From the NCBI RefSeq assembly GCF_048403405.1, contig NZ_CP183129.1: a stretch of DNA of 64,000 nt. One strand, 5' to 3'. This stretch comes from Escherichia coli (GTDB lineage: Bacteria > Pseudomonadota > Gammaproteobacteria > Enterobacterales > Enterobacteriaceae). The notes under the pieces are model-generated. The model was not told where the DNA came from, did no database searches, and worked only from the letters and a program-made list of their open reading frames with translations. This document shows, piece by piece, positions 2,610-31,797 of this stretch; the first letter of the stretch is position 1; every line of letters begins with the position of its first letter. The position numbers were made by a program, and so were the translations under genes.

Positions 2610-3239
2610 ATGGTAAAGATGGAAAGTAATATCAAAGGGTTAGTTGCCGCCGGGCATGAGATGGCTTCGGAACTGAAAGCTGAATGTGGTGCCGTTGATA
2701 TGCGTAGTGTGGCAAAGCTGCTCAGCGATTTGGCAACGCAACTGGAAGTGCAACTGGTGCGTGCTAATGCGCTGGCCGAAGACCAACAGAGAGCGATTGA
2801 GTCAATTAAGCAGGCTGATTCGGCTGTTAAGTTGGCACACAAGAAGTTTTCGGAGCTGGCAGCGGAGAATGCGGCACTGAAGGCTGCGCACCCTCAACCA
2901 TTCGGACCTGAGATGATGAAGGCTCTTGATGCGTATGAGAAGTATCAGGATGAAGTGCCGGAGACTGGGATGCTCAATGCATTTTTCATCTTGCGCGACA
3001 GTATCCGTGTTGACACCCCAGCCACCGATGCTTTCCTGGCTGAAGTGCGGGCGCAGGGCGTGGATGCTGCTATAGAAGCTGCAAAAAATCTGGTGGCCCA
3101 AGAATATGAGTATAAGGATTTCAAAGCGGCGCAGAGTGATTGCTGTATGCACCCTGGTTCAGATCTGGTAGGGAAGGTTGAAATGACTGAGTGGTTAGTT
3201 GACTTTGCTGCCCAGCTTCGCAAAGGAGGCAACCAGTGA
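2610..3239 (+). CDS. Hypothetical phage protein (alpha-helical/coiled-coil)
   Basis: 209-aa ORF in the early operon, no overlap conflicts, no recognisable family. Confidence 0.45.
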   Translation: MVKMESNIKGLVAAGHEMASELKAECGAVDMRSVAKLLSDLATQLEVQLVRANALAEDQQRAIESIKQADSAVKLAHKKFSELAAENAALKAAHPQPFGPEMMKALDAYEKYQDEVPETGMLNAFFILRDSIRVDTPATDAFLAEVRAQGVDAAIEAAKNLVAQEYEYKDFKAAQSDCCMHPGSDLVGKVEMTEWLVDFAAQLRKGGNQ

Positions 3240-3763
3240 GCAAGATTGACTATCAGGCACTGCGTGAAAAGGCAGAGAAAGCAACGTGTGGTGTGTGGTC
3301 GCTCGAATATGGAGAGGGACGATTTGATGGTGATGATGCGCTAATTCATCGTGAAGTTGCTGGATATATTCCCATTTGCAGAATTGAAGGAGCGCATCCT
3401 GAAAGCGGTTTCGATGAAGATTTCCAAACTGAACAGCAGGCCAATGCTGAATTCATCGCCGCAGCCAATCCGGCTACTGTGCTGGCGCTTCTGGATGAAC
3501 GGGAAAGAAACCAGCAATACATCAAACGCCGCGACCAGGAGAACGAGGATATTGCGCTAACGGTAGGGAAGCTGCGCGTTGAGCTGGAAGCCGCAGAGAA
3601 GCGCATAGCAGAACTGGAAGCGCGGGAAATACTGCTCCCTGAACGTAGCAGCATGCTTCATCGAACAGATTTTCACGATGATTACCAAACGGTAATGGCA
3701 TACAAAGTTTCTGAAGTCATCGATGCAATCCGCGCTACTGGCATTCGCATCAAAGGAGAGTGA
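3236..3763 (+). CDS. Ead/Ea22-like protein
   Basis: GTG start after AAAGGAGG; MSKIDYQALREKAEKA... N-terminus and coiled-coil C-terminus typical of Ead/Ea22-like early proteins (recalled). Confidence 0.55.
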   Translation: MSKIDYQALREKAEKATCGVWSLEYGEGRFDGDDALIHREVAGYIPICRIEGAHPESGFDEDFQTEQQANAEFIAAANPATVLALLDERERNQQYIKRRDQENEDIALTVGKLRVELEAAEKRIAELEAREILLPERSSMLHRTDFHDDYQTVMAYKVSEVIDAIRATGIRIKGE

Positions 3764-25695: not shown

Positions 25696-25929
25696 TTACT
25701 TTTCTTCAGGTTTGTTGTCTTCAGATTTCTTCTTGATGCTTGGTTTTTGTCTAAGACCGAAAATACCAGCCACTGCAACAACTGTACCGATCACTGTGCC
25801 AGCTAGAACTTCATGACCTGTTAAACCTAATAATGTTGCACAAGCTACTGTAAAAATAGTTGCACTCAGGCCAAACCACTGCCCACGTTTATCTCTATTA
25901 ATAGCCCCGTCAAGTGCCTTTTCCTCCAT
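25696..25929 (-). CDS. Small two-TM membrane protein (possibly the C-terminal part of a frameshifted larger gene)
   Basis: 77 aa with two hydrophobic segments and a Lys-rich tail; the same frame stays open upstream to ~26073. Confidence 0.45.
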   Translation of the reverse strand: MEEKALDGAINRDKRGQWFGLSATIFTVACATLLGLTGHEVLAGTVIGTVVAVAGIFGLRQKPSIKKKSEDNKPEEK

Positions 25930-25958
25930 TTTCTGGCGGTGAGCAAACTCCTTCTCCG

Positions 25959-26243
25959 TCAGCTGGAAGATGCGTTCGGGGGCATCAGGTAAAATATCCT
26001 GATACCCGCGAAGCAGATAGGGGGAGGAAGCGGACCCTGAAACGCATGGTGAGCGACAACTATCTCCTGAATTTCAGGGCGATCAAGAACTCTTGTGAAG
26101 GCATCTGGGTGTTGAATGATCTCGTTACTTAGCCCTTCCTCAACTTCCTCGAACTCAGTTTCTTCGTTATCACTTGGTTGCCCAATAGATTTTTGCATAT
26201 TTGTCGAAGGACATTCCTTTAGCTTCTGGTTTTCCTCTTGCAT
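25959..26243 (-). CDS. Acidic hypothetical protein (possibly the middle part of a frameshifted gene)
   Basis: 94-aa ORF overlapping the upstream ORF by 74 nt in another frame; C-terminus degenerates into Pro-rich sequence near a G5 run at ~26019-26026. Confidence 0.3.
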   Translation of the reverse strand: MQEENQKLKECPSTNMQKSIGQPSDNEETEFEEVEEGLSNEIIQHPDAFTRVLDRPEIQEIVVAHHAFQGPLPPPICFAGIRIFYLMPPNASSS

Positions 26244-26617: not shown

Positions 26618-27310
26618 TCAGAAGAACCCTGCTTTGTCGTTGATGTACTCCGCGTGCGTCTGGATATCACGCAGGCATTTGCTCACACCGACGATGTAGC
26701 AGAACATGGTGGTCAACTCCGCCGCCGCGCCCGATACGTCGTGCCCGTCTTCCTGTAACTGGTTTAGCAGATTCATCAGCAGTGAGTTCTCCGTCAGGCC
26801 GAGAACACCAGACGGCGAATGAATCAGGCTGCGGTAGCCGGGCTTCAGTGGGGCGCTGTAGGTTTTGTTCTCTACCTTCATTGCCTGCATCACTGCTGAT
26901 GCTGTGGCGTTGGCTACCTGGTCGGCAACCATCTTTATGCGTTCTTCCTGCGGGAGCGAGTTTTTAATGTAACTTCCGGTGCGGCGGATCTGAGGAAGAA
27001 CCTCACCTGTAACCCATTCAAGAAATCTGAATGCTCTCGTTCCCTCAGTCATTGCCTCTTTGCAACGCAGAATAAGGATGTAGAGACCTGATTCTGAAAC
27101 GATGGATAGTTCTTGTATTCCACCAGGGGTCTGTATTGAATACAGCCCCTTTTTGTTCCAGCCTTTTTTATCAAGTTTTCTCGCTTGTGTAACATCAATA
27201 TTCAAAGCATTGCACACATCTTTGGTGACAAACCAAGGTTCTCCGTCAATCATGAACATACGGATCTGGCAGGATGACTCAAAGGAAAAGATGGAAGGTT
27301 TGGTATTCAT
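26618..27310 (-). CDS. Antirepressor (Bro-N domain plus KilA-C/ANT C-terminal domain)
   Basis: Start MNTKPSIF after AAAGGTGA; Bro-N-like N-terminus (FMIDGEPWFVTKDVCNALNI...) and ANT-like C-terminus, as recalled. Confidence 0.7.
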   Translation of the reverse strand: MNTKPSIFSFESSCQIRMFMIDGEPWFVTKDVCNALNIDVTQARKLDKKGWNKKGLYSIQTPGGIQELSIVSESGLYILILRCKEAMTEGTRAFRFLEWVTGEVLPQIRRTGSYIKNSLPQEERIKMVADQVANATASAVMQAMKVENKTYSAPLKPGYRSLIHSPSGVLGLTENSLLMNLLNQLQEDGHDVSGAAAELTTMFCYIVGVSKCLRDIQTHAEYINDKAGFF

Positions 27311-27669
27311 AGCGATCACCTTTGTAGTTAGGTTAATCACCACCGCTGAGACCAATCAGATGGTGGTGAACTGTGCAGAGTTGGTCTTACCGGCTACAAA
27401 GGAACCCGGCGCACCTTTCGGTGCCCCCACACAGCCCACCATAGAATAGGTGCGCTTTACACATAAAAAAACCGCTTATGCGGCATATGTGCCTCTGTAG
27501 TAATCCGGGAGACCAATCCCGGCACTGGATTTTGCCAGTGCCCGATTACTATGGCACAAGAGGAGTGCAATGTAAATTTACCGAAAAGGTAATAATAAAT
27601 GCATAACTCACGTTATTTCAACCCTATATGGTTTGATTTATCCCATTTCAGAAAATACCTGCCTATTTT

Positions 27670-27699
27670 TTTGCCAGTATGCGTATACTTTCGATAGAA
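27670..27699 (+). promoter_or_regulatory. Candidate sigma70 promoter (-35 TTGCCA, 18-nt spacer, -10 TAGAAT) for the 27718 operon
   Basis: Hexamers read directly from the sequence; palindrome site 5 abuts the -10. Confidence 0.4.
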
Positions 27700-27701
27700 T
27701 G

Positions 27702-27716
27702 TTTACCCTAGAGGTA
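27702..27716. promoter_or_regulatory. Palindrome TTACC-CTAGA-GGTAG (operator-like site 5, one arm imperfect)
   Basis: Lies between the -10 hexamer and the start codon, an operator-like position. Confidence 0.4.
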
Positions 27717-27717
27717 G

Positions 27718-28173
27718 TTGGGGGTGCCCGTGAACACGAAGAGAGCTACAGTAATGCAGCATTTGAGGAAATCAGAAAAAAATAAAGACCATGAAATATT
27801 GAGTAAGGCCATTGTTCGGGCTTCCAATAATACTGTTATACCTCATGCTGAAGAGTCTGGACAGAAATTTCTTATTCGGTATTTCACTGAAAATAGTGCA
27901 GTTGAGGAGATTTTAAAACATCAGGGAGGGGAATTTAAATGTGGAAAACTGGCAGATTATGTTCGTCGTGAAACGTCTGAACAAGAAGTATATTATGCTG
28001 ATATTAATCATAAGTCAGGTGTGAAAATTGTAATAGGCTATTACACAACTCCCAAAAATGTTATGCATGAGGTCCCAAAGATGTCCGTCGAGAAATCTCA
28101 TGCAATCTCGCGCAGGATGTTTGCACGCACTGCCGAAGATATGGCTCAGGAGCTCTACGACGATGCTGAATAA
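27718..28173 (+). CDS. Hypothetical protein with acidic C-terminus; candidate antitoxin/immunity partner of the downstream YafO-like gene (ATG alternative at ~27754)
   Basis: 151-aa ORF, AT-rich; its stop overlaps the start of the next gene (ATGCTGAATAA). Confidence 0.45.
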   Translation: MGVPVNTKRATVMQHLRKSEKNKDHEILSKAIVRASNNTVIPHAEESGQKFLIRYFTENSAVEEILKHQGGEFKCGKLADYVRRETSEQEVYYADINHKSGVKIVIGYYTTPKNVMHEVPKMSVEKSHAISRRMFARTAEDMAQELYDDAE

Positions 28174-28477
28174 ATTCCAGGGGTTGGTTCACCCTGGAAT
28201 TTTTGGGAAGGACCCTGAGCTAATACCTATCAAAAACGCGTTCATAGATCACTGGCGCTACGGTCATCATAAGGATTTCGGAAAGGACACTCTGTTTCGG
28301 GATCCACCGAAAGAAATGCTGGAATATCACATACGCCACGTTCACGTAAACATCGGAAACTATACTGACAAGTTTGGTGAGAGCGGTACGGACAATGCTG
28401 GAAAAACTGGGCGTCTGGGAAGAAAGACAAGACCACTAACAAGCATAAAAAGATCCCAACCAGTGACGTGTATGTGA
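28163..28477 (+). CDS. YafO-like toxin, N-terminal part (gene appears frame-split)
   Basis: FGKDTLFRDPPKEMLEYHIRHVHV resembles the recalled YafO motif FGRDALYDD...ERVAHIHL. Confidence 0.4.
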   Translation: MLNKFQGLVHPGIFGKDPELIPIKNAFIDHWRYGHHKDFGKDTLFRDPPKEMLEYHIRHVHVNIGNYTDKFGESGTDNAGKTGRLGRKTRPLTSIKRSQPVTCM

Positions 28478-28668
28478 TTTATCTGGTCACATCTGAACGC
28501 CATGCCTTCCTTCTGGATTATTGGGATGAACCAGCACATAAGACAGTAGAAATTGACGAGCAGAAGCAAAAATTAGTTGTCGAGTGTGACAGAATTTTGC
28601 GGCTGAAAAAGTTAGAATCCATGCCGCGCGATGCTAGTTTGTGGGACCCAGAATTTTACGACTGTTAA
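28468..28668 (+). CDS. YafO-like toxin, C-terminal part in the -1 frame
   Basis: YLVTSERHAFLLDYWDEPAHK resembles recalled YafO HLVYCQGAFDEQAWLLIAILKPEPHK; overlaps the previous ORF by 10 nt. Confidence 0.35.
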   Translation: MYVIYLVTSERHAFLLDYWDEPAHKTVEIDEQKQKLVVECDRILRLKKLESMPRDASLWDPEFYDC

Positions 28669-28669
28669 T

Positions 28670-28692
28670 GGCCGCTTTCGCGGCCTTTAAAT
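28670..28692. terminator. Bidirectional terminator hairpin
   Basis: GGCCGC-TTTC-GCGGCC followed by TTTAAATTT; same hairpin sequence as at 25419-25434. Confidence 0.5.
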
Positions 28693-28950
28693 TTACCGGG
28701 TTTGTTTTCGTAATTGTTCGGCACAATAGTCGAGATGTGTTTGCAGATCCCGCATAGACATCTGTGAGCTGGTGACGTAGTTAATCAGTGCAGTCAGTTC
28801 GGCAAGTGGGCCATCGACATTAAATCCATCCTTATCGAGATCCCGGAGTAATTTCATCAAGTGCGATCCCTCCACCAGTGACCTGACGCCTCCCGGCGTG
28901 TGAATCCTTTCGGTAAATCCGTCTTCCAGTGGATAGTGATACTGCTGCAT
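28693..28950 (-). CDS. Stand-alone KilA-C/ANT C-terminal domain protein (paralog of the antirepressor C-terminus)
   Basis: Internal ATG at 28950 after GGAGAAG; MQQYHYPLEDGFTERIHTPGGVRSLVEGSHLMKLLRDLDKDGFNV... aligns with the C-terminal ~85 aa of the antirepressor at 26618-27310. Confidence 0.6.
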   Translation of the reverse strand: MQQYHYPLEDGFTERIHTPGGVRSLVEGSHLMKLLRDLDKDGFNVDGPLAELTALINYVTSSQMSMRDLQTHLDYCAEQLRKQTR

Positions 28951-29026
28951 CTTATCTTCTCCATGCAATAACTGTATGTTTATACAGTAACAAATAATTT
29001 GTTTGCTATCCAGCACGTTTTGCAAA

Positions 29027-29041
29027 TTACCTGAAAGGTAA
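29027..29041. promoter_or_regulatory. Palindrome TTACC-TGAAA-GGTAA (operator-like site 6) in the divergent region upstream of the tailspike gene
   Basis: Perfect palindrome; followed by ATATCTATTCGTA (also beside site 1) and TATGTGGTT-N5-GGTAATA. Confidence 0.45.
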
Positions 29042-29145: not shown

Positions 29146-31797
29146 ATGACGGTCTCAACCGAAGTTGACCACAACGAATACACTGGTAACGGAGCTACGA
29201 CATCATTTCCGTATACCTTCCGTATTTTCAAAAAATCCGACCTGGTTGTTCAGGTGTCTGACCTGAACGGGAACGTAACAGAATTGGTTCTGGATACTGA
29301 CTACACAGTAACCAATGCTGGAGGATATAATGGCGGTAATGTAATTCTGTCGAAGGCGTTGGCTAACGGTTATCATATTTCTATATCACGAGAGCTCCCG
29401 GTTACGCAGGATACTGATTTGCGTAATCAGGGTAAGTTCTTCGCTGAGGTACATGAAGACGCGTTCGATAAACTGACAATGCTTATTCAAAAGTGTTTTT
29501 CATGGATGAGGTTAGCACTTATAAAACCAAGCATTCTGGCTAACTATTATGATGCAAAAAATAATAAGATATCAAATCTAGCAAATGCCACTGACAGAAA
29601 CGATGCTGTCAATAAAGGTTATGTTGATGATCTTTTTACTGGAGGTGTAACGCCTACACCTAACAGCGTTAAAAACGATATTTTTACAAATCACCAAAGA
29701 AAGATTGTAGCTACGATGCCGCTTCTTTTTCCTGAATATGATGCGATTATGGCTGCTAACCCGTCAGCAACTTATATGTATCCTCAAGGATTCTGCGTTA
29801 GCGAAGATTTGATATACATCACTTATCCATTTGAGCCTAAACAGACGAATAATGTCGTCGCAGTATTTAACATATCTGGTATTTATCAAGGTTATTTCTA
29901 TGTTCAGGCTGGCGGCCCAGGCTTCGCTGCTGAAGGAATCGTGGTTACGTCAGACTATGGCCCCAAAAAAATGTTTGTTGGTCACACAAACGGAATACTG
30001 CGTGAATTTAATATGGAGGGGGCATTATACGGAAGCAATCTGCCTCTTGTACAAAACCATGATGTTGGATTATTCAACCAGTTCAGCTACAGAAGAGGTA
30101 TATGGCTCGTTGAGCAGAATGCGCCAGAAGTAGGACAGAAAATCACAAGAACTGTACTTGCAGTGTTCGACAGTGGTTTCAATCGCCTGTCAACTATAAC
30201 GCTGCCGTTACATGATGTTGGGTATGTAACTAAAAGCACCTCACCTTATGCGCCTTATTTCAACAAGCGTCAGGGTATTGCGGTAGGTGATAACTACTTT
30301 GTCTGCGGCTATGGCGGCTTCATAGCTGATGGGGCAGGAAGCGCAGGATATAACGAATATCAGGGCAGCAAAGTTTTTAACCCTGACGGTACAAAGCGAA
30401 CTGAATCAATGCTTCATCCTCAGGCCATGATGGATTTAATGAAAGCCGCAGGATTGAACGTCACTCGCATAGAAAATGAAGGCGTTTGTGTTTCTCAGGA
30501 TGGAAAATCCATTTATTCACTTTACATTCATCAGGAAAGAACTGGCTCTGAACCTTACAATTCAGGTTTGGTTATTTTCGAAGATTTCTCCACTGATAAA
30601 GATGCTATCGATTTTACACCTGCATCCAGGCTTTACCGCGGATTTGATATCGATCACGCGAGCATTGGGGTATATCCCCGTAGTGCGAAGGGGATTGTTA
30701 ACCCTGTAGATGGTACGTTGTTCACTAACATGACTGAAATTCTTCGCTATATGCAGGAGATGAGTCAGAAGGCATTTAATTTTTACACAGGGACTGTCAG
30801 CATTGCTGATATATCTGGCGTGGCAATCCCTTCCAGCACATATGTTGAAATACTGAATGCGAATAATCAGACTTTTATAGTCAACTATTATTCATCTGAT
30901 AGTGGTATTAGTTATTTGGTTGCAACTAATCCTTCTGGTGACTTTGTATTTGTGCGCCAGCGACCGGCACAGTGGGCATCTAACTTAACCATTCAGCAAA
31001 ACGCAGATCCTGATACAAACCAATTAAACCGCATCACTGCATCATCATATGCCGGTGCAACTACAAACTCTCAGAAAATATTGGTCCTTGACCAGCAGGC
31101 TACAGCTAGCGCAAATAGCTTGGTATTGGGCGGTAGTTCTTCTGTGTTTAGGTCTGCCACCACGGTGGATATTGCATGCAACAGCGACCCGACAGCATTG
31201 GGAGGAACCATACGCTGGCGGTTTTATGATACAGGTCTTCGCCCGTTTGCTGACAATACCTATAATTTTGGTCAGGCATCGTTTCGTATTAAAGACGCCT
31301 ACTTTGCAAATGCCCCAACCGTTTCATCAGATGCCACGCTGAAAACCAATCCCGAGGCAATATCAGATTTAAGTGAAATGCTTTCTTCTGATAGAGACAG
31401 CATTCTTGATGCCTGGGGCGATATTTCTGTTGTGGCGTATCGATGGCTCGACGCTATATCCATGAAGGGCGATGGTGCCAGATGGCATTTTGGCGTCATG
31501 GCTCAGCAGGTAAGGGATGTATTCTTGGCGCACGGAATTGATGGAACCAGATTTGGCCTTCTTTGCTATGACGAGTGGGATGATATTTTTGAGCCGGTAA
31601 TCGCGACTAAAGAGATTACCGATACGTCTGGTGAGTTGGTCACCGTCGAATATGACACCGGAGAACAGAGGCTGGTTAAAAAAGCGGGTAGTTCATGGGG
31701 TATACGGCCTGACCAGTGCGCTTGGCTTGAGGCTGCATATCAGCGCCGTCGATGCGATCGTATTGAAGAGCGACTCGAACTATTGGAATCAAAATAA
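29146..31797 (+). CDS. Tailspike protein with epsilon15/CBA120-type N-terminal particle-binding domain and C-terminal self-cleaving intramolecular chaperone (peptidase S74-like) domain
   Basis: N-terminus MTVSTEVDHNEYTGNGATTSFPYTFRIFKKSDLVVQV as recalled for this tailspike family; C-terminal ~156 aa (from ~31327) with SDATLK, YRW, FGVMAQQV blocks typical of endosialidase-chaperone domains. Confidence 0.8.
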   Translation: MTVSTEVDHNEYTGNGATTSFPYTFRIFKKSDLVVQVSDLNGNVTELVLDTDYTVTNAGGYNGGNVILSKALANGYHISISRELPVTQDTDLRNQGKFFAEVHEDAFDKLTMLIQKCFSWMRLALIKPSILANYYDAKNNKISNLANATDRNDAVNKGYVDDLFTGGVTPTPNSVKNDIFTNHQRKIVATMPLLFPEYDAIMAANPSATYMYPQGFCVSEDLIYITYPFEPKQTNNVVAVFNISGIYQGYFYVQAGGPGFAAEGIVVTSDYGPKKMFVGHTNGILREFNMEGALYGSNLPLVQNHDVGLFNQFSYRRGIWLVEQNAPEVGQKITRTVLAVFDSGFNRLSTITLPLHDVGYVTKSTSPYAPYFNKRQGIAVGDNYFVCGYGGFIADGAGSAGYNEYQGSKVFNPDGTKRTESMLHPQAMMDLMKAAGLNVTRIENEGVCVSQDGKSIYSLYIHQERTGSEPYNSGLVIFEDFSTDKDAIDFTPASRLYRGFDIDHASIGVYPRSAKGIVNPVDGTLFTNMTEILRYMQEMSQKAFNFYTGTVSIADISGVAIPSSTYVEILNANNQTFIVNYYSSDSGISYLVATNPSGDFVFVRQRPAQWASNLTIQQNADPDTNQLNRITASSYAGATTNSQKILVLDQQATASANSLVLGGSSSVFRSATTVDIACNSDPTALGGTIRWRFYDTGLRPFADNTYNFGQASFRIKDAYFANAPTVSSDATLKTNPEAISDLSEMLSSDRDSILDAWGDISVVAYRWLDAISMKGDGARWHFGVMAQQVRDVFLAHGIDGTRFGLLCYDEWDDIFEPVIATKEITDTSGELVTVEYDTGEQRLVKKAGSSWGIRPDQCAWLEAAYQRRRCDRIEERLELLESK

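Follow-up and report, generated by a model that had tools for sequence, protein, structure and literature searches.

In this study, we found that two genes in a stretch of Escherichia coli DNA, one for an 85-aa protein and one for a 230-aa protein, encode the same domain, and that this domain has the fold of Ant, the antirepressor of phage SPC32H. The explanation that fits best, and that we regard as probable when taken as a whole, is that the window (the whole 64-kb stretch of DNA that was analysed) holds an epsilon15/phiV10-like (Uetakevirus) E. coli prophage with a SPC32H Rep/Ant-type switch, in which one Rep-inactivating fold is placed under separate SOS and RNA controls. The pair is genuine, but for the most part it is an unremarkable example of domain re-use, and both genes are of known kinds. 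The genes and domains concerned are as follows.

26618-27310, minus strand: long antirepressor gene, 230 aa counted from the ATG (Bro-N domain, linker and Ant-fold C-terminal module)
26993-27265, minus strand: Bro-N domain, aa 16-106 of the long protein (Pfam PF02498)
26621-26890, minus strand: Ant-fold C-terminal module, aa 141-230 of the long protein, a paralogue of the short Ant
27730-28668, plus strand: intervening pair, a 147-151-aa ORF followed by a yafO-like ORF
27730-28173, plus strand: 147-151-aa ORF (phrog_9503)
28163-28668, plus strand: yafO-like ORF, its frame split in the window by a 1-nt deletion near 28392
28693-28950, minus strand: short ant gene of 85 aa, whose product is an SPC32H-type stand-alone antirepressor

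An earlier note on this DNA had claimed that the two proteins share a domain, and had set formal pairwise alignment beforehand as the result by which the claim should stand or fall. In BLASTP, aa 141-222 of the long protein aligned with the short protein with 35 identities in 84 positions (42%), 68.9 bits and an E-value of 5e-20, so the similarity is significant. When both the pair and a control of 200 shuffles of the short protein were scored without composition correction, the real pair gave 68.2 bits, and the shuffled sequences averaged 5.1 bits and reached 19.6 bits at most. A tblastn search found only these two copies of the shared domain in the 64-kb window. The claimed arrangement is also borne out: the two antirepressor-type genes are co-oriented on the minus strand, on either side of the plus-strand pair. 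Likewise, the long protein is a Bro-N antirepressor, as had been proposed. Its aa 16-106 match Pfam Bro-N (51.3 bits against a gathering score of 25.6, E = 1.9e-13), and the protein matches phrog_130, 'anti-repressor Ant' (E = 4e-51).

The identity given to the shared domain in the earlier note, KilA-C/ANT, had to be abandoned. No credible Pfam match at E ≤ 0.1 was found in the long C-terminal region or in the short protein, the NCBIfam scan for such an identity was blank, and among PHROGs the only hit, that of the short protein to phrog_450, is to a family of 'unknown function'. Instead, the fold is that of SPC32H Ant. With phmmer, PDB 5D50_E ('Anti-repressor protein') covers aa 2-84 of the short protein with an E-value of 1.4e-46, and the C-terminal module of the long protein matches the same chain with an E-value of 9e-14. 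For the full-length long protein, AF2 gave a poor model (pLDDT 58), and a Foldseek search did not recover 5D50.

The short gene had been suggested to be a truncated or decoy copy. It is instead a core gene of the lineage: its product is identical to SPC32H Ant at 72 of 83 positions (87%, E = 3e-56), and an invariant LexA box lies upstream of it. The sites around the gene are listed below.

28670-28685: GC-rich hairpin GGCCGCTTTCGCGGCC, where the ant and yafO-like genes converge
28970-28989: LexA (SOS) box AACTGTATGTTTATACAGTA, 22 nt upstream of the ant ATG
28972-28987: core of the LexA box, CTGTATGTTTATACAG, 22 nt upstream of the ant ATG
29027-29041: palindrome TTACCTGAAAGGTAA in the ant-tailspike intergenic region

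The LexA box is the sole match to CTGT-N8-ACAG near the locus, with no second such box in the window. A point mutation in the CTGT arm is the difference reported between SPC32N and SPC32H. It agrees with the 20-nt consensus at 17 of 20 positions, which was reached by none of 100 shuffles, and its CTGT and ACAG arms are invariant across six phages including SPC32H while the spacer varies. This near-consensus box is, as predicted from its sequence, the LexA-binding site expected of an SPC32H-type Ant. No LexA box was found upstream of the long gene, and a simple scan gave no sigma-70 consensus promoter for the short ant. The start of ant at 28950, giving 85 aa, is favoured over a 126-aa ORF from 29073, because homologues have only 85-86 aa and the LexA box lies between the two candidate starts; the longer ORF was therefore rejected. 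The palindrome motif of the ant-tailspike region occurs eight times in the window against 0.08 expected, is invariant in a six-phage alignment and recurs in the rep-cro intergenic regions of EC.W1-9 and SPC32H. It is probably an operator of a phage master regulator, the presumed binding protein. The hairpin GGCCGCTTTCGCGGCC looks like a terminator, both in a terminator scan and from the sequence itself.

The short gene and SPC32H ant occupy matching positions, divergent from the tailspike gene, and every epsilon15-like (Uetakevirus) phage examined conserves a short ant there. SPC32H, epsilon15 and 65FD have the short gene alone there. The earlier note had proposed looking for relatives with one full-length gene at this position; none was found among the relatives compared. 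The short form is ancestral and conserved, and the long gene is a variable insert. Rather than being a truncated copy, the short gene is, as predicted from its homology and LexA box, the SOS-controlled antirepressor known from epsilon15-like phages. Of 5426 complete E. coli genomes, 528 (about 10%) carry it, and RefSeq labels it 'hypothetical protein'.

The window starts inside a cro-like gene, about 0.2 kb to the right of rep, so that rep itself lies outside it. In EC.W1-9, which is 99% identical across the locus, the repressor matches the Rep chain 5D50_A with an E-value of 4e-42, and the Rep of ZX5 is 100% identical to that of EC.W1-9. A SPC32H-type Rep was found in all 34 phage records carrying the domain, a co-occurrence confounded by phylogeny because every fusion phage also has the short Ant.

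The plus-strand pair between the two genes is best regarded as cargo outside the switch, because it is missing at this spot in phiV10, ZX5 and L007. A YafO-type toxin pair was considered and rejected. The name YafO comes solely from the RefSeq product name 'YafO family toxin' of an intact relative, neither Pfam nor NCBIfam matched the ORF or that relative, and the frame in the window is broken by the 1-nt deletion, which was located by blastn against relatives.

The control of the long gene appears to be of another kind. The gene is preceded by a P1 immI-type isrK/C4 cassette, whose C4 loops are predicted to pair with the gene's own ribosome-binding site. Its elements, from upstream to downstream, are as follows.

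27548-27592, minus strand: isrK promoter-like site, TTTACA-17-CATAGT with TG (promoter scan)
27578-27592: palindrome TTACCTTTTCGGTAA, which abuts the promoter-like site (palindrome search)
27465-27541, minus strand: isrK-like RNA (Rfam RF01394, 74.7 bits against a gathering score of 50)
27510-27516, minus strand: a1, within the isrK-like RNA
27492-27500, minus strand: b1, within the isrK-like RNA
27471-27484 and U-run, minus strand: intrinsic terminator at the end of the isrK-like RNA (terminator scan)
27359-27446, minus strand: C4 antisense RNA (Rfam RF01695, 78.6 bits against a gathering score of 45)
27394-27402, minus strand: C4 loop b', CCUUUGUAG
27381-27387, minus strand: C4 loop a', AGACCAA
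27319-27355, minus strand: targets of C4 within the long-gene leader
27349-27355, minus strand: C4 target site a2, TTGGTCT
27319-27327, minus strand: b2, CTACAAAGG, overlapping the Shine-Dalgarno sequence
27316-27323, minus strand: Shine-Dalgarno sequence AAAGGTGA, 5 nt before the ATG at 27310

A match to the c4-a1b1 model also overlaps isrK (39.9 bits versus 46.7). The two C4 loops are perfect complements, over 7 and 9 nt, of a1/b1 on the upstream side and a2/b2 on the downstream side, and b2 overlaps AAAGGTGA. With ViennaRNA duplexfold, the pairing of the whole C4 or isrK RNA with the leader was indistinguishable from that of shuffles; pairing was judged instead from complementary motifs and their covariation. 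Across phages, 100% of the a'-a2 helix stays paired, although two of its seven pairs have changed on both sides. phiV10 and TL-2011b carry a matched 1-nt deletion in b1, b' and b2, and in L007 the b'/b2 pair is re-written as CCACTTAG with CTAAGTGG. Together, the compensatory a/b changes span three C4 specificity types. The promoter and palindrome region of isrK is conserved in a five-phage alignment. A C4 RNA also lies 5' of the fused antirepressor gene in phiV10, TL-2011b, Tyrion, L007 and ZX5, and the cassette is absent from phages with the short ant only. It occurs in 225 phage records. The 48-nt gap between C4 and the ATG at 27310 contains no ORF, and no orf45-like ORF runs up to or into the start of the long gene; the sole small ORF (25 codons from 27464) ends inside C4. 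In the GenBank record of ZX5, a CDS named 'ash family protein' overlaps the C4 RNA.

The C-terminal module of the long protein is 36-42% identical to Ant and keeps all invariant and near-invariant positions of the family. The fused and stand-alone subfamilies differ consistently, e.g., NYVTSSQ versus CYIVGVS, and share the conserved non-helical N-terminal segment Y-x-x-P-L..G-[FY]...I-H-[ST]-P-x-G-V. Among relatives, the module is fused to five different heads, namely Bro-N, AntA, P22_AR_N, Rha and ORF6N, and is 100% identical to that of the window over the last 80 aa in the AntA form and over the last 75 aa in the P22_AR_N form. Every fusion context examined lies at this locus of a Uetakevirus-like prophage, and 468 E. 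coli genomes carry the module. The fusion gene is disrupted in phiV10 and the O157 typing phages. Since phiV10 is nevertheless a working temperate phage, the long gene is dispensable. The restriction of the module to Rep phages and the overexpression phenotype of the ZX5 homologue suggest indirectly that the module may bind Rep.

These results suggest the following scheme, to which our own analysis contributes the homologies, the distribution of the genes, the LexA box, and the RNA elements, which are complementary and covary. In the lysogen, LexA would repress the 85-aa ant gene. Upon DNA damage LexA would be removed and Ant made. A review states that Ant is produced after LexA cleavage. According to papers describing SPC32H Ant, the protein forms tetramers, binds dimers of Rep and frees Rep from the DNA, and it is this published mechanism that we extend to the present phage. 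From the 87% identity, the short Ant is also expected to form a tetramer and bind Rep dimers. By homology with the solved SPC32H complex, one Ant tetramer would bind two Rep dimers and break the DNA-binding Rep tetramer, leading to induction of the prophage. The 230-aa protein would be an accessory second antirepressor, in which a diverged Ant fold (about 40% identity) forms the repressor-directed part behind Bro-N. Its gene appears to be outside LexA control, with a P1 immI-like leader in the order promoter, isrK (a1/b1 and terminator), C4 RNA (a'/b') and a2/b2. The C4 loops would pair with a2/b2 and cover the ribosome-binding site of the long gene; if so, no long protein should be made unless C4 is titrated or outrun. 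We infer that infection, read-through or an excess of the short IsrK may provide such relief. With Ant under SOS control and the fusion under RNA control, one repressor-inactivating fold would thus answer two independent inputs, SOS and RNA immunity. The pro-lytic effect that supports this role for the long gene is likewise taken from published work: overexpression of ORF4 of ZX5 reduced the number of lysogens from 1e9 to 1e6 and the level of repressor mRNA by 75% (PMC9782041). That experiment used GST-tagged overexpression, a design that does not address direct Rep binding (PMC9782041).

A broader reading joins these elements into a P1-like immunity network laid over the SPC32H LexA-Ant switch, with dispersed TTACC-N5-GGTAA operators, among them the sites at 27578 and 29027, and a C4-gated antirepressor with P1/P7-like specificity types. 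In such a network, the ~85-aa Ant fold would be the lineage-specific Rep-inactivating piece, which recombination has attached to the rear of five or more exchangeable N-terminal domains and brought under three control circuits, i.e., LexA, isrK/C4, and Arc/sar in TL-2011b. We offer this reading only tentatively, and it is less likely true than false. If it is true, phages with identical Rep would fall into heteroimmunity groups according to their C4 types. A phage that superinfects could then lift repression in a resident relative, and SOS and RNA signals could be integrated by mixed Ant/fusion tetramers.

It is also conceivable, though unlikely, that the long protein is not a second self-inducer but a trans-acting anti-immunity weapon against Rep in other Uetakevirus prophages residing in the cell, and that it is expressed during superinfection if the C4 type of the resident is mismatched. 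Close relatives with identical or near-identical Rep have at least three C4/target specificity types, which recall the heteroimmunity of P1 and P7. The annotators of phiV10 named its homologue 'putative anti-immunity protein', and antirepressors that act in trans are reported for Gifsy phages (PMC3121763). However, this is a variant of the explanation that we favour, with one biochemical act in another setting, and does not truly exclude it.

A further and rather improbable alternative is that the C-terminal module is a mere tetramerisation scaffold taken from Ant, and that the long protein acts through Bro-N on DNA or another target, not on Rep. Ant is tetrameric, so part of the conservation of the fold could serve self-assembly alone, and the subfamilies differ at many surface-type positions. 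The fused N-terminal domains are generally regarded as DNA-binding modules; Bro-N, AntA, P22_AR_N, Rha and ORF6N were reportedly described as such by Iyer, Koonin and Aravind in 2002. However, five unrelated heads carry the module, and only in phages with a SPC32H-type Rep, so that lineage-specific targeting fits better than a generic oligomeriser. In addition, both subfamilies conserve the module's non-helical N-terminal segment, and the ZX5 homologue lowers both lysogeny and repressor mRNA. That the two proteins form mixed oligomers through the shared fold, one modulating the other (e.g., the long protein poisoning or tethering Ant tetramers), which takes up the decoy or dominant-negative idea of the earlier note in either direction, is very unlikely: the fold oligomerises, and the genes are neighbours found together in most Uetakevirus prophages of E. 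coli (468 genomes with the module, 528 with the short ant), but the two are only about 40% identical, their separate promoters, terminators and regulators (LexA versus C4) make co-expression non-obligatory, many phages function with the short Ant alone, and the ZX5 homologue promotes the lytic route rather than blocking it.

If one Ant fold is indeed under SOS and RNA controls, the practical gain is in annotation: a 'hypothetical protein' of about 10% of complete E. coli genomes would be the SOS-controlled inducer of these prophages, and a solved structure already exists for its 87%-identical homologue. The locus is a clean natural example of modular antirepressor construction, in which a small repressor-directed module stands alone or behind swappable heads, each with its own sensor (LexA, C4/IsrK RNA or Arc/sar). 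We know of no other C-terminal module of this type for which a complex of the stand-alone form with the repressor has been solved. Therefore, the locus allows direct tests of which half of Bro-N-type antirepressors confers repressor specificity, and of the purpose of the widespread isrK/C4 cassette.

Among known systems, the closest to the short gene is the Ant/Rep switch of SPC32H, reportedly described by Kim and Ryu in J Virol in 2013 and by Kim et al. in PNAS in 2016. SPC32H Ant is an antirepressor under LexA control that takes the Rep tetramer apart (PDB 5D50). The two genes are alike in sequence (87%), size, tailspike-divergent position and LexA box, and the Rep of near-identical relatives of this prophage is homologous to SPC32H Rep. 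The Rep of the E. coli group, however, is only about 42% identical to SPC32H Rep, and SPC32H is without the second, fused copy of the Ant fold present in this phage.

The closest to the long gene is ORF4 of ZX5 (vB_EcoP_ZX5), which has the same Bro-N and Ant-fold architecture, is 80% identical overall and at 109 of the last 110 aa, has an isrK/C4 leader and neighbours a short ant that is 99% identical. It differs in its more divergent Bro-N domain and in having no yafO-like pair between its two genes. The ZX5 paper, the only experimental one on an E. coli member of the group, mentions neither SPC32H nor a function for the short gene, which it annotates as hypothetical and does not discuss (PMC9782041).

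The leader resembles immI (c4-icd-ant) of P1 and P7 in that a C4 RNA (RF01695) is processed from the transcript of its target, a1/b1 lie upstream and a2/b2 downstream, b2 masks a ribosome-binding site, and the gene under control encodes an antirepressor. As in immI, too, specificity types differ through compensatory a/b changes, and a palindromic operator-like site abuts the promoter. In P1, the Op51 operator of C1 abuts the promoter. Unlike immI, there is no icd-like upstream ORF here and the masked ribosome-binding site is that of the antirepressor gene itself; the antirepressor has Bro-N and the Ant fold without a Pfam ANT domain, and the host phage is a podovirus, not a P1-like myovirus. 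In the isrK-orf45-anrP locus of Gifsy-1 (PMC4825925), similarly, an antirepressor-like gene comes after an isrK RNA, whose terminator is leaky, and a stable RNA made by processing. At the DNA level, Gifsy-1 and the present locus have the cassette in common. The present locus has an isrK RNA with a Rho-independent terminator (27484-27471) upstream of an antirepressor-like gene. It differs in having no leader ORF like orf45, the peptide whose translation IsrK activates in Gifsy-1, and the downstream effector of Gifsy-1 works through the AntQ antiterminator.

Finally, Iyer, Koonin and Aravind are said to have described in 2002 phage antirepressors with shuffled domains, including Bro-N, AntA, P22_AR_N, Rha and ORF6N heads. 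The C-terminal module found here differs from those of such modular antirepressors in having no Pfam family. In common with them, the long protein combines a promiscuous N-terminal domain with a variable C-terminal one, here with a single C-terminal module behind five heads.

The window contains the right two-thirds of an E. coli prophage resembling epsilon15 and phiV10 (genus Uetakevirus). Its plus strand carries replication, packaging and virion genes as far as the tailspike gene (29146-31797), and lysis genes. From 25.5 to 29.3 kb the DNA is 99% identical to the free phage EC.W1-9 and to prophages of several complete E. coli genomes; similarity to EC.W1-9 stops near 33.8 kb. Two antirepressor genes lie in a variable region with internal virion/injection protein genes on one side and the tailspike gene on the other, which is the genomic place of the immI region in P22. 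The rep gene is outside the window, which starts inside a cro-like gene about 0.2 kb right of rep. The EC.W1-9 repressor matches PDB 5D50 chain A, Rep of the Salmonella phage SPC32H (E=4e-42). The tailspike gene (plus strand) is a mosaic: relatives share the N-terminal head-binding part until about 29300-29500, beyond which the sequence diverges into another receptor-binding part (an SGNH/GDSL hydrolase in the annotation of close relatives), and by eye the C-terminus resembles an intramolecular chaperone of the endosialidase type. The locus is organized as follows.

26618-27310, minus strand: long gene, 230 aa from the ATG at 27310
27446-27359, minus strand: C4 antisense RNA, after isrK
27541-27465, minus strand: isrK RNA, directly upstream of the long gene
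27671-27700: promoter-like site of the plus-strand pair
27730-28668, plus strand: gene pair between the antirepressor genes
28693-28950, minus strand: short gene, 85 aa from the ATG at 28950

Both ORFs were found where the earlier note had placed them, and the domain it had them share is real: pairwise alignment covers 84 residues at 42% identity (E=5e-20), and the real pair scores 68.2 bits versus at most 19.6 bits in 200 shuffles of the short protein. These are the only two copies of the domain in the window. The KilA-C/ANT label given to it did not hold. Pfam detected neither ANT nor KilA-C in either protein, finding only Bro-N (aa 16-106) in the long one, and NCBIfam gave no match. PHROGs assigns both the short protein and the long protein's C-terminus to phrog_450 ('unknown function'). 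The PDB matches settle the question: 5D50 chain E ('Anti-repressor protein' of the SPC32H Rep-Ant complex) is matched by the short protein at E=1.4e-46 and by aa 149-225 of the long protein at E=9e-14. Judged from these sequence matches, the shared domain is the Ant fold of SPC32H.

The short gene encodes the lineage's core antirepressor, which is already known. Its product shares 87% identity with the protein annotated as ant in the SPC32H genome record, and 22 nt upstream of its ATG lies a LexA box close to consensus, CTGTATGTTTATACAG, which agrees with the 20-nt consensus at 17 of 20 positions and is the sole LexA-box match near the locus; the search with this consensus found no match in 100 shuffles. 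When aligned with SPC32H, 65FD, phiV10, Tyrion and another prophage, the box has invariant arms, CTGT and ACAG, and a variable spacer. In SPC32H, Rep is reportedly not cleaved but inactivated by the small Ant, and LexA is said to repress ant transcription from a site overlapping the ant promoter. The short gene and its LexA box are present in 528 of 5426 complete E. coli genomes, under the RefSeq product name 'hypothetical protein'. The gene had been read as a truncated copy of its neighbour. However, SPC32H, epsilon15, 65FD and other Salmonella phages carry the short gene alone at this position, so the short form is ancestral and conserved rather than a fragment of the neighbouring gene. Ant has diverged much less than Rep between the E. 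coli and the Salmonella phages (87% identity for the short Ant, only about 42% for Rep); either Ant contacts a conserved Rep surface or some other constraint has conserved it.

The long gene encodes an accessory antirepressor of modular build. When 1.84 billion representatives were searched exhaustively with a profile, the domain turned up in only 62 clusters, as stand-alone proteins of about 85 aa or as C-terminal modules of 180-320-aa proteins headed by Bro-N, AntA, Phage_pRha or ORF6N, with P22_AR_N in phage TL-2011b. Since the AntA-headed protein P0122 exactly matches the last 80 residues of the window protein and the P22_AR_N-headed TL-2011b gp42 its last 75, recent exchange has put different N-terminal domains on a constant C-module. 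Every inspectable context was the same Uetakevirus-like prophage locus, adjoining the short ant and the tailspike gene. Among the 34 domain-bearing records of the phage collection, all 34 encode an SPC32H-type Rep and 19 have a fused copy besides the short one; 468 complete E. coli genomes contain the C-module, at 581 places in total. The fused subfamily retains all invariant and near-invariant positions of the family, as well as a conserved non-helical segment at the N-terminus of the module, Y-x-x-P-L..G-[FY]...I-H-[ST]-P-x-G-V.

The one relevant experiment concerns phage ZX5, which has the same Rep as EC.W1-9 (100% identity) and whose ORF4 is 80% identical to the long protein overall and identical at 109 of the last 110 residues. 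With ORF4 overexpressed, lysogens fell from 1e9 to 1e6 per mL and repressor mRNA dropped by 75% (PMC9782041). That paper does not cite SPC32H, and left ZX5's own short ant, 99% identical to the short Ant of the window, as a hypothetical protein (PMC9782041). The fused gene is disrupted in phiV10, as p23 (194 aa) followed by p22 (29 aa) at 3012-3691 of its record (L002), and in O157 typing phages; it is therefore dispensable. In cluster P0145 (183 aa), the first half of the Ant module has been lost through an internal deletion. The accessory copy decays in some lineages (phiV10, the O157 typing phages and P0145).

Consensus searches of the locus found no LexA box for the long gene. Directly upstream of it are isrK (Rfam 74.7 bits, gathering score 50), whose 3' end is an intrinsic terminator, and C4 (78.6 bits, gathering score 45). 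The pair also precedes the fused gene in phiV10, TL-2011b, Tyrion, L007 (a related record) and ZX5, and is absent in 65FD, a phage with the short ant only. Reading of the sequence indicates that the C4 hairpin loop b', CCUUUGUAG, is perfectly complementary to b2, CUACAAAGG, which overlaps the Shine-Dalgarno sequence AAAGGUGA located 5 nt before the long-gene ATG. The C4 multiloop element a' (AGACCAA) is complementary to a2 (UUGGUCU), 22 nt upstream of b2, and near-copies, a1 and b1, lie within isrK. The a and b elements co-vary across five phages.

Pairing elements of the isrK/C4 cassette
Window and Tyrion: a1/a2 TTGGTCT; a' AGACCAA; b1 CTACAGAGG, b' CCTTTGTAG, b2 CTACAAAGG
phiV10 and TL-2011b: a1/a2 TTGGCGT; a' ACGCCAA; same base missing from b1, b' and b2
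L007: a1/a2 TTGGTCT; a' AGACCAA; b' rewritten to CCACTTAG, b2 to CTAAGTGG

Across the phages, a'-a2 is 100% paired with 2 of 7 pairs altered on both sides, and overall pairing is 93.6% versus 30-47% when partners are slid by 1-3 columns. The cassette is widespread: DNA resembling it was found in 225 phage records, among them those of Stx phages, SfV, APSE and Gifsy-1. At least three specificity types of isrK/C4 (27359-27541 in the window, minus strand), with compensatory a1/a'/a2 and b1/b'/b2 changes, accompany identical or near-identical Reps (L002, L003, L005, L007 and L013), which suggests P1/P7-like RNA heteroimmunity groups inside Uetakevirus. Annotated features overlap these RNAs in two relatives: the 'ash family protein' CDS of ZX5 (L013; 1779-1892) overlaps C4 (1821-1906) and was probably called in error, and in phiV10 both C4 and isrK are overlapped by the misc_feature 'similar to SF0880'.

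The intervening plus-strand pair is absent from phiV10, ZX5 and L007, and TL-2011b instead has a gene, likewise called a YafO family toxin by RefSeq, downstream of its Bro-N gene. No antitoxin domain could be recognised in the upstream partner (147-151 aa, phrog_9503), and the YafO identity of the yafO-like gene was not confirmed by any profile library. Compared with all close relatives, the window lacks a single base in a short homopolymer at each of two places, ~26020 and ~28392. These deletions split a DUF2335 gene (25696-26243) and the yafO-like gene (28163-28668), respectively; they are either true pseudogenisation of cargo genes or homopolymer sequencing errors.

The palindrome TTACC-N4/5-GGTAA has 8 copies in the window versus 0.08 expected, 11 in EC.W1-9 and 10 in SPC32H.

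Palindrome copies, 14-15 nt each, window positions: 2133, 2195, 3682, 5957, 9102, 26518, 27578, 29027

Nearly all copies are intergenic, including those in the rep-cro regions, abutting the isrK promoter and in the ant-tailspike region. The palindrome looks like a candidate dispersed operator of a phage master regulator, possibly Rep, by analogy with C1 operators in P1.

Two genes with one repressor-directed fold are thus present in the same phage. The core short copy would respond to DNA damage via LexA, and the accessory fused copy would be gated by antisense RNA. We think it most likely, with moderate confidence, that the long protein uses its C-module to bind Rep in the manner of Ant. If so, the long protein may provide an SOS-independent derepression route, or an anti-immunity function on infection. 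Two other readings take the same shared fold differently: the short Ant and the long protein may assemble into mixed oligomers, or the C-module may be only an oligomerisation scaffold. Besides the two arrangements in the window, TL-2011b (L003) has a third Ant-fold gene (1183-2367), which joins a P22_AR_N head to the same C-module and lies behind an Arc-like repressor and a sar antisense RNA (1354-1421; Rfam 44.8 bits, gathering score 43). The arrangement amounts to a P22-type immI joined to the repressor-targeting module of Uetakevirus.

In the immI operon of P1 and P7, C4 blocks translation upstream of ant, and the isrK/C4 leader of the long gene has the same architecture. The Gifsy-1 isrK-orf45-anrP locus (PMC4825925) has this architecture as well. 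Unlike in P1 immI and Gifsy-1, however, no ORF corresponding to icd or orf45 lies between C4 and the long gene, and the putatively masked ribosome-binding site is the antirepressor gene's own. In the literature searched, it seems unstated that the C-terminus of a Bro-N antirepressor is the Ant fold, or that within one phage lineage this fold is shuffled between five kinds of N-terminal domain and three control circuits. In conclusion, the short gene is of a described kind (SPC32H Ant), and so is the long gene (ZX5 ORF4, P1 immI and Gifsy-1 isrK-anrP); what the analysis adds is a useful annotation together with a model that can be tested, and the system itself is not of a new kind.
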